The position numbers were made by a program, and so were the translations under genes. The notes beneath the pieces are model-generated. The model was not told the DNA's origin. It was given only the letters and a program-made list of their open reading frames with translations, and searched no databases. Source: Escherichia coli (lineage in GTDB: Bacteria; Pseudomonadota; Gammaproteobacteria; Enterobacterales; Enterobacteriaceae). From it: 426 nucleotides of DNA. Shown here one piece after another: positions 1-426 of the stretch (positions are counted from its first letter, which is position 1; each line of letters opens with the position of its first letter). Where the stretch lies: assembly GCF_003334255.1 (NCBI RefSeq), contig NZ_QOWU01000244.1. One strand, written 5' to 3'.

Positions 1-27
1 GCGCATCCGGCAGGACCGCCATCAGGC
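1..27. repeat. Possible partial REP (repetitive extragenic palindromic) element immediately 3' of the CDS, truncated by the window edge
   Basis: Seen in sequence: the reverse complement of 1..27 is GCCTGATGGCGGTCCTGCCGGATGCGC. It contains GCCGGATGCG and GCCTGATG, both resembling the conserved 5' portion of enterobacterial REP units (consensus recalled from memory as approximately GCC(G/T)GATGCG(G/A)CG…). Only a half-site is visible, and the second motif overlaps the stop codon, so this is weak. Confidence 0.25.
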
Positions 28-426
28 ACCAACAAGCCGTCTGACGCTCACACCATACAGCCCGTTTTTCGCCATTCCCGTATACAGAAAGGTATTCACC
101 GTCTTCGTGTGGATACCCATTTCACTGGCAAGGCGGCAGGGTCTCGACTGGCGGTAGACATAACCGAACATCACCACCATCTCTGACATCGTCAGCGGGC
201 GGGCAGCACTGTTATACGTCCAGACGCCGTTGTGTATGGCATCACTTATCTGCTCACCATCACGGAGCAACTCCGCATCCAGTTGCAGAAAATGACGCCC
301 CTGGAACATACAGCGCATCAGCCTGCCCAGCAGGCCATCACTGATTATCAGCCAGGATTCGTCAAAGTCCGGGATATAACGGCGGTTCTCCGGCAGGAAA
401 AACTCCCTCGCCAGTATCACACTGTG
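22..426 (-). CDS. Hypothetical protein, putative small DNA-binding regulator with a C-terminal helix-turn-helix-like motif; likely 5'-partial (N-terminus may lie beyond position 426)
   Basis: Seen in sequence: an uninterrupted minus-strand frame of 134 codons ending at the TGA stop (plus-strand 22..24, tca). The ORF track starts at GTG 418..420, but the two in-frame codons upstream (421..426, reverse complement CAC AGT = His-Ser) are also open, so the true start may be outside the window. No Shine-Dalgarno can be assessed because only 6 nt lie upstream of the GTG. An open frame of this length is unlikely by chance at this GC content. No plus-strand ORF of comparable length is reported. Product assignment rests only on a C-terminal motif read by eye, not on a database search. 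Confidence 0.7.
   Translation of the reverse strand, partial: HSVILAREFFLPENRRYIPDFDESWLIISDGLLGRLMRCMFQGRHFLQLDAELLRDGEQISDAIHNGVWTYNSAARPLTMSEMVVMFGYVYRQSRPCRLASEMGIHTKTVNTFLYTGMAKNGLYGVSVRRLVGA
25..195 (-). other. Putative C-terminal helix-turn-helix DNA-binding region (residues ~L76 to A132 of the track ORF); family unresolved (LuxR/GerE-like, sigma-70 region 4-like, or Mor/C-type phage activator-like)
   Basis: Seen in sequence: LTMSEMVVM-FGYVYRQSRPC-RLASEMGIHTKTVNTFLYTG-MAKNGLYGVSVRRLVGA. The pattern hydrophobic-A-x-x-x-G-(I/V)-x-x-x-T-V-x-x-(F/L) is the classic helix-turn-glycine-recognition-helix arrangement. A leading L-T-x-x-E-x-x-V and a ~57-residue length ending at the C-terminus match the general layout of LuxR/GerE-type or sigma-70 region 4-type HTH domains (established knowledge). 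Inference only; no profile search was possible. Confidence 0.35.

Follow-up and report, generated by a model that had tools for sequence, protein, structure and literature searches.

A 426-nucleotide (nt) stretch of Escherichia coli DNA (contig NZ_QOWU01000244.1; the whole stretch is referred to here as the window) holds a single long open reading frame (ORF), and the locus raises the question of what kind of protein this frame encodes and what such a protein would do behind eibD, the gene of an immunoglobulin-binding, YadA-type trimeric autotransporter adhesin. The frame lies on the minus strand, as do all the window features described below, and runs from the right edge of the window to a stop codon at 22-24; since it is still open at the right edge, part of the gene is cut off. 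The record of phage P-EibD from E. coli ECOR-9 (AF151675.1) matches the window with 100% identity at positions 2665-3090; there the gene is named orf-156D and encodes 156 amino acids (aa). The coding sequence in the window (22-426), assigned from this identity and from the ratio of nonsynonymous to synonymous substitution (dN/dS), comprises codons 23-156 (25-426) and the stop codon (22-24), and the first 22 codons lie outside. Prophages of 17 complete E. coli genomes, and the phages GER2 and PhiR5/PhiR12, match the window at 99-99.8% identity. The window is part of orf-156D, a real gene of prophage P-EibD, and is not a chance ORF. An initial annotation, made from the letters of the window alone, had described a small protein of ~135+ aa with a putative DNA-binding C-terminus; this size holds as a minimum, since the window cuts the gene short of its full 156 aa, and minus-strand translation of 25-195 reproduces exactly the 57 residues that were quoted (LTMSEMVVMFGYVYRQSRPCRLASEMGIHTKTVNTFLYTGMAKNGLYGVSVRRLVGA).

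ORF-156D is read here as a two-domain transcription regulator of the TosE family, with a probability of about 0.72 for this identity together with the general mechanism. The two domains would be a shortened receiver-like domain (residues 1 to ~90) and, following it, a DNA-binding helix-turn-helix (HTH) domain of the LuxR/GerE type (~100-153). The firmest part of the reading is that ORF-156D is a TosE-family protein with a LuxR-type HTH, which is very likely.

The four-helix HTH domain is assigned to residues 100-156 (25-195) from the translation, profile-profile alignment, a structural model, Foldseek and a profile search of the PDB. An alignment of 24 family sequences was compared by hhalign with an alignment of NarL, RcsB, EvgA, UvrY, CsgD, GadE, DctR and TosF, drawn from the K-12 and CFT073 genomes, and the two matched with 96.3% probability (E=1.9e-9). 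Residues 88-149 are in register with NarL 143-204, with LTMSE opposite LTPRE and KTV opposite S/KTV, and the C-terminal parts alone gave 96.4% (E=1.2e-9). Searched against all PDB sequences, the family profile had only four matches, all of LuxR type (three VqmA and GerE) and all in register, at marginal E values of 0.07-0.4. A model computed with AlphaFold2 on the family alignment (mean predicted local distance difference test score, pLDDT, 83.8; predicted template modelling score, pTM, 0.77) places C-terminal helices at residues 102-114, 118-125, 129-142 and 150-153, which form a four-helix bundle at the C-terminus, with the second and third helices making up the HTH. The top Foldseek matches of the whole model are response regulators of the NarL/FixJ type: StyR, FixJ, RcsB, EvgA, DesR, LiaR, VraR and VpsT. 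In AFDB50, a 100%-identical entry is labelled 'HTH luxR-type domain-containing protein' and relatives are labelled 'LuxR family transcriptional regulator', and plasmid homologues of 34% identity carry the label 'LuxR C-terminal-related transcriptional regulator' from the Prokaryotic Genome Annotation Pipeline (PGAP). The C-terminal LuxR/GerE-type HTH that the initial annotation had suspected is thus supported alike by the profile-profile match, by the four-helix bundle of the predicted structure and by Foldseek.

In the model, the first helix of the domain (residues 102-114; 151-189) carries the LTMSEMVV motif and is the equivalent of the 'LTxRE' scaffold helix of LuxR-type proteins; L100, M102, S103, E104 and M105, which are aligned with NarL LTPRERDIL, are at least 90% conserved in the family. 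The first helix of the HTH proper (residues 118-125; 118-141), placed by the model, conservation and hhalign, is followed by a turn at G126 and then by the predicted recognition helix, TKTVNTFLYTGMAK (residues 129-142; 67-108), which was located from the modelled helix, conservation and the NarL alignment, and which hhalign sets against the recognition helix region of NarL, STVKVHVKHMLKK. The turn glycine and the T-V segment behind it, on which the first description of the domain had drawn, are family traits: G126 is at least 90% conserved, T131 and V132 are invariant, and K130, L136, Y137 and K142 are at least 90% conserved. A short last helix in the model (residues 150-153; 34-45) stands at the position of the dimerisation helix in GerE and NarL, and is much shorter than its counterpart there. 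GerE of Bacillus subtilis (PDB 1fse), with its much longer last helix, differs from ORF-156 also in being a stand-alone HTH without an N-terminal domain. Judging from the model, the HTH domain would bind DNA, most likely as a dimer.

The initial annotation had also named sigma-70 region 4 proteins and the Mor/C-type phage activators. On that account ORF-156 would be a phage transcription factor, either a Mor/C-type activator of middle or late genes or a sigma-like protein that consists of region 4 only and acts on RNA polymerase, and this is hardly credible. Among 28 family members there was no match to Mor (PF08765) or to sigma region 2, and the only region-4 matches are weak ones in a single member (0.015 and 0.052). 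Fold and profile comparisons both match LuxR-type proteins best, and the N-terminus is modelled as an alpha/beta, apparently receiver-like domain rather than a helical region 2. The gene lies in an accessory region past the tail-fibre genes and not in a regulatory module, its homologues are present on non-phage islands and plasmids, and it has decayed in Shiga toxin (Stx) phages. The Mor/C reading was accordingly rejected for its lack of profile or fold support and its unsuitable genomic position, and the sigma-factor reading for the absence of region 2 and the receiver-like N-terminus. In PHROGs the only matches were to phrog_6585 and phrog_2014, both of unknown function, and, at E=0.11, to a 'transcriptional regulator' family.

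The N-terminal domain is read as a shortened pseudo-receiver of the kind seen in GadE, DctR, CsgD and TosF, an assignment that is less secure than that of the HTH. Residues 23-90 of this putative alpha/beta domain lie within the window (223-426), and the model gives the domain a beta-alpha-beta-beta-alpha-beta-alpha topology. Asp52 (codon at 337-339) stands at the end of strand 3, is aligned by hhalign with the phospho-acceptor Asp59 of NarL and is at least 90% conserved in the family. The phosphorylation site of a receiver is nevertheless incomplete: D52 is kept, but the acidic pair D13-D14 of NarL is replaced by T7-R8 (outside the window), and the strand-5 region is absent from both the alignment and the model. 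No histidine kinase gene was found in the neighbourhoods of P-EibD, GER2 or NCTC9112. Because the metal-binding acidic pair and the fifth strand-helix unit are missing, action as a phosphorylated receiver is probably absent, and the domain would more likely serve oligomerisation or contact with a partner or ligand than phosphorylation.

Between the two domains, residues 83-108 (172-249) gave the leading hit of a phmmer search of the PDB that returned chance matches only. The hit is to streptococcal protein G (1pgx; E=0.59), with 10/18 residues identical over GVWTY..A....T..EMV, and is curious beside the gene of an immunoglobulin-binding adhesin but not significant. It is taken as chance because of this insignificance and because it falls in a family-variable interdomain segment that overlaps the first HTH helix.

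Judged by sequence, the closest characterised relative of ORF-156D is TosE of uropathogenic E. coli CFT073. A search of representative sequences returned a 160-aa protein aligned over its full length (E=2.2e-19), whose gene (99.9% DNA identity) is CFT073 locus C_RS01670, directly 3' of tosA. The operon at this locus encodes a PapB-family regulator, TolC, a type I secretion ATPase, HlyD, a large repeat protein and two HTH proteins of 160 and 169 aa. This is the order tosRCBDAEF, which identifies the 160-aa protein as TosE (WP_001024300.1), the product of the sixth gene. BLASTP aligned ORF-156D with TosE at 32% identity over 151 aa (residues 1-151; E=1e-30) and with TosF in the HTH only (E=0.057).

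TosE and ORF-156D are alike in size (160 and 156 aa) and two-domain layout, and both are missed by the Pfam GerE family, TosE having only a weak Sigma70_r4_2 match. Each gene comes directly after a co-oriented adhesin gene, from which a terminator-like hairpin separates it; the hairpin and U-run between tosA and tosE (locus L012, 15881-16000) are of unrelated sequence. The loci differ in that the adhesin TosA is a type I-secreted repeats-in-toxin (RTX) protein encoded on a chromosomal pathogenicity island, whereas Eib is a trimeric autotransporter and orf-156D is carried on a prophage. Moreover, the next gene after tosE is tosF, again of LuxR type, and that after orf-156D is orf-60D, which encodes a small membrane protein, and the gap between tosA and tosE measures 120 bp, as against 88 bp from the eibD stop to the orf-156D start on the same strand. 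In two papers, TosE, a LuxR-family protein, and TosF are linked to the suppression of motility (PMC5956150, PMC10392849), and TosEF are placed among the regulators of fliC expression in the latter (PMC10392849).

Among better-known proteins, the NarL/FixJ regulators (NarL, RcsB, EvgA, FixJ and StyR) share with ORF-156 an N-terminus that appears receiver-like, a LuxR-type four-helix HTH and an Asp at the phospho-acceptor position, but they are ~50 residues longer and possess the acidic pair and the fifth strand/helix. GadE, DctR, CsgD, EcpR/MatA and TosF, which are atypical and kinase-independent, are small like ORF-156 and, like it, combine a LuxR HTH with a degenerate N-terminus of receiver-like appearance. 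In the alignment, ORF-156 has a 'T-[KR]-[DN]' motif in common with GadE, DctR, CsgD and TosF in place of the 'DDH' loop of true receivers, and EcpR and TosF, like ORF-156, are linked to adhesin loci. A specific relationship to GadE (hhalign E=0.041, probability 1%) or to EcpR (E=0.0023, probability 12.7%) was not supported.

Eleven different genomic contexts of the family were compared, and in 8 of the 11 the gene lies just 3' of, and co-oriented with, a gene for an adhesin or another large secreted protein. These eight are the Eib cassettes, three other cassettes with a YadA anchor (one each in a lambdoid prophage, on a Rep3/ccdAB plasmid and in a prophage adjoining prfC, the release factor 3 (RF3) gene), the tos operon, a plasmid tos-like operon, a locus with HemolysinCabind proteins and a plasmid locus with very large proteins. 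The homologues and neighbourhoods to which the initial annotation had pointed have thus yielded both a relative, TosE, and a recurrent site after adhesin genes.

Linkage so tight and recurrent would also suit a local activator or repressor of the adjacent eib gene, comparable to AutA/AutR acting on upaB or to EcpR acting on the ecp pilus operon. AutA and AutR, which are LuxR/GerE-type regulators encoded beside upaB, bind the promoter of this adjacent autotransporter adhesin gene directly (PMC4844996), and TosE has a weak NCBIfam match to EcpR (E=0.0032). However, orf-156D stands 3' of the adhesin gene, past its terminator, and is neither upstream of it nor divergent, and the hhalign probability for EcpR is low, as given above. 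The neighbours of upaB (hyxB) in CFT073, genes of the hyxA/hyxR type with products of ~250 aa, never appear among the homologues, and AutA/AutR are therefore analogues only, not relatives. The unlinked ibrAB genes activate eib expression in ECOR-9, and cloned eib genes by themselves suffice for immunoglobulin binding. A local role of this kind is unlikely.

How a TosE-family regulator would be produced at this site is suggested by the intergenic region. A GC-rich hairpin followed by a U-run stands in the 82-88 bp gap of five aligned Eib-type cassettes (in the eibD gap, locus L001, 1233-1261) and corresponds to the stem-loop of the AF151675.1 annotation. Among the five it is conserved, and the substitutions in it maintain pairing of the stem. 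The coding strand of the gap between eibD and orf-156D showed no sigma-70-like site, and a Shine-Dalgarno sequence, GGAAGG, is present 7 nt before the orf-156D ATG. Given that orf-156D lies behind a terminator-like hairpin and has no recognisable promoter of its own, it is probably expressed from read-through transcripts, which would start at the eib promoter or arise by antiterminated phage late transcription. If TosE and TosF are a guide, ORF-156 would then most likely adjust the surface programme of the host, including flagella and other surface structures, when the adhesin cassette is transcribed. Coupling to motility in particular is proposed tentatively on this analogy. Should adhesin expression be coupled to motility or other surface traits in this way, proteins of the family would be part of how mobile elements alter colonisation by pathogenic and commensal E. 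coli.

A wider and rather doubtful proposal is that the TosE-like regulator of prophage-borne Eib cassettes serves as a lysogenic-conversion factor, one that is expressed by read-through only and reprogrammes the surface genes of the host. Strong eib expression, or Q-antiterminated late transcription on induction, would drive the read-through, and flagella, capsule and other adhesins would be reprogrammed. TosE-like proteins would in that case constitute a general mobile 'adhesin-coupled switch', spread in E. coli by phages, plasmids and islands.

The same upstream terminator and missing promoter-like site could alternatively mark an inert relic, carried along with the adhesin cassette after its expression or function was lost. 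Truncated or internally deleted copies are frequent (for example P0036, P0040 and P0044), and gene L0123 of the Stx phage 933W (locus L033, 3944-4296) is a decayed orf-156, in which the 5' end has been replaced and ~120 nt have been deleted internally, and the HTH-coding part, although conserved as DNA, is out of frame. This remnant recurs in ~160 Stx-converting phage records, where no eib gene adjoins it, and phrog_2014 appears to have been built on this L0123-type remnant. Because the gene is a pseudogene in 933W and in ~160 other Stx-phage records, it is unlikely to be needed for phage growth. Intact, full-length orf-156D is nonetheless present in 49 complete E. coli genomes and several phages, with a good Shine-Dalgarno sequence and strongly conserved HTH residues. 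Pairwise dN/dS against homologues is 0.07-0.28 (Nei-Gojobori) wherever the synonymous divergence (dS) is measurable and not saturated, and this makes an inert relic quite improbable for the intact copies.

At E<=1e-3, 44 homologues were found in a collection of 5.8 billion proteins, the full-length members being 51-99% identical to ORF-156D, and a filter-free search of 1.8 billion representatives added members down to 32%; overall, the identity of full-length homologues ranges from 31% to 99%. Three long phmmer matches (P0057, P0062 and P0065) are repeat proteins and were discarded as spurious. Paralogous members within E. coli have saturated or nearly saturated synonymous sites (dS above 1.2) at protein identities that are still 50-75%; the family is therefore old and diverse, and yet all homologues with a named source are from E. 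coli, without exception.

Several observations weigh against the reading of ORF-156D as a TosE-family regulator. ORF-156D alone has no match in Pfam at E<=10 and none in NCBIfam, and when 28 family members were searched singly against Pfam the best matches, to Sigma70_r4 (0.015) and GerE (0.1), were insignificant. This bears out the divergence from the usual LuxR signature that the initial annotation had remarked on, and the profile search that it had proposed left the curated Pfam and NCBIfam families unmatched, the LuxR-type match coming from the profile-profile comparison. The fold evidence is built on a predicted model from a shallow, E. coli-only alignment, and the N-terminal receiver assignment, at 74% probability, is weaker than that of the HTH. 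Where the recognition helix of NarL contacts bases, the aligned residues of ORF-156D are different ones, and no target can therefore be predicted. TosE is itself poorly characterised, and no TosF-like partner gene lies beside orf-156D, such a gene being seen only at tos-type loci. The upstream terminator, with no visible promoter, could mean that the gene is barely expressed. Finally, 3 of the 11 contexts are not adhesin-linked: the gene of P0032 stands alone beside hpaBC among large non-coding gaps, that of P0028 is on an island with PerC and EspG genes, and that of P0027 (63% identical) stands at the head of a capsule locus, with kpsF ~450 bp downstream of it.

Read as a TosE-family regulator, a gene that has gone under 'ORF-156' or 'hypothetical protein' ever since deposition of the Eib prophage records gains a name and a testable role. 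The family is not confined to the tos island: on prophages, plasmids and islands it travels with adhesins of at least two unrelated classes, RTX proteins and trimeric autotransporters. Neither the fold nor the architecture nor the TosE family is new, some automatic annotation already carries a LuxR-type label, and the gain is to that extent incremental. That prophages and plasmids carry a TosE homologue in their YadA-type adhesin cassettes, those of Eib included, appears to be undescribed in the searchable literature, and a full-text search found no paper joining EibG with LuxR.

In P-EibD, the genes follow one another on one strand in the order orf-191D, eibD, the stem-loop, orf-156D, orf-60D and an L0124-like gene, and in full phage and prophage records the block containing orf-156D occupies the accessory region past the tail-fibre genes noted above. 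An Rfam scan of the 3.8-kb locus returned no RNA family. The sequence upstream of P0028 is partly like the Eib-type intergenic region, without the hairpin. The window ends, at 1-22, with the first seven codons of orf-60D as annotated in AF151675.1 (ATG at 20-22). This ATG overlaps the orf-156D stop codon (TGATG), suggesting translational coupling. However, both the profile of phrog_9340 and the 42-aa product called by PGAP in NCTC9112 start at an internal Met18/19 of orf-60D, outside the window, and the overlap with orf-156D may therefore not be real. The annotated orf-60D product (locus L001, 545-727) is a 60-aa protein that has a basic stretch and, at its C-terminus, a single membrane helix; it is a member of phrog_9340, a family of unknown function. 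Just past orf-60D lies a perfect 8-bp GC-rich hairpin (locus L001, 521-539). On the coding strand an A-run precedes it, and on the opposite strand a T-run follows it; given this orientation of the runs, the hairpin, if a terminator, would serve the opposite direction. A similar hairpin is present at the equivalent place in 933W.
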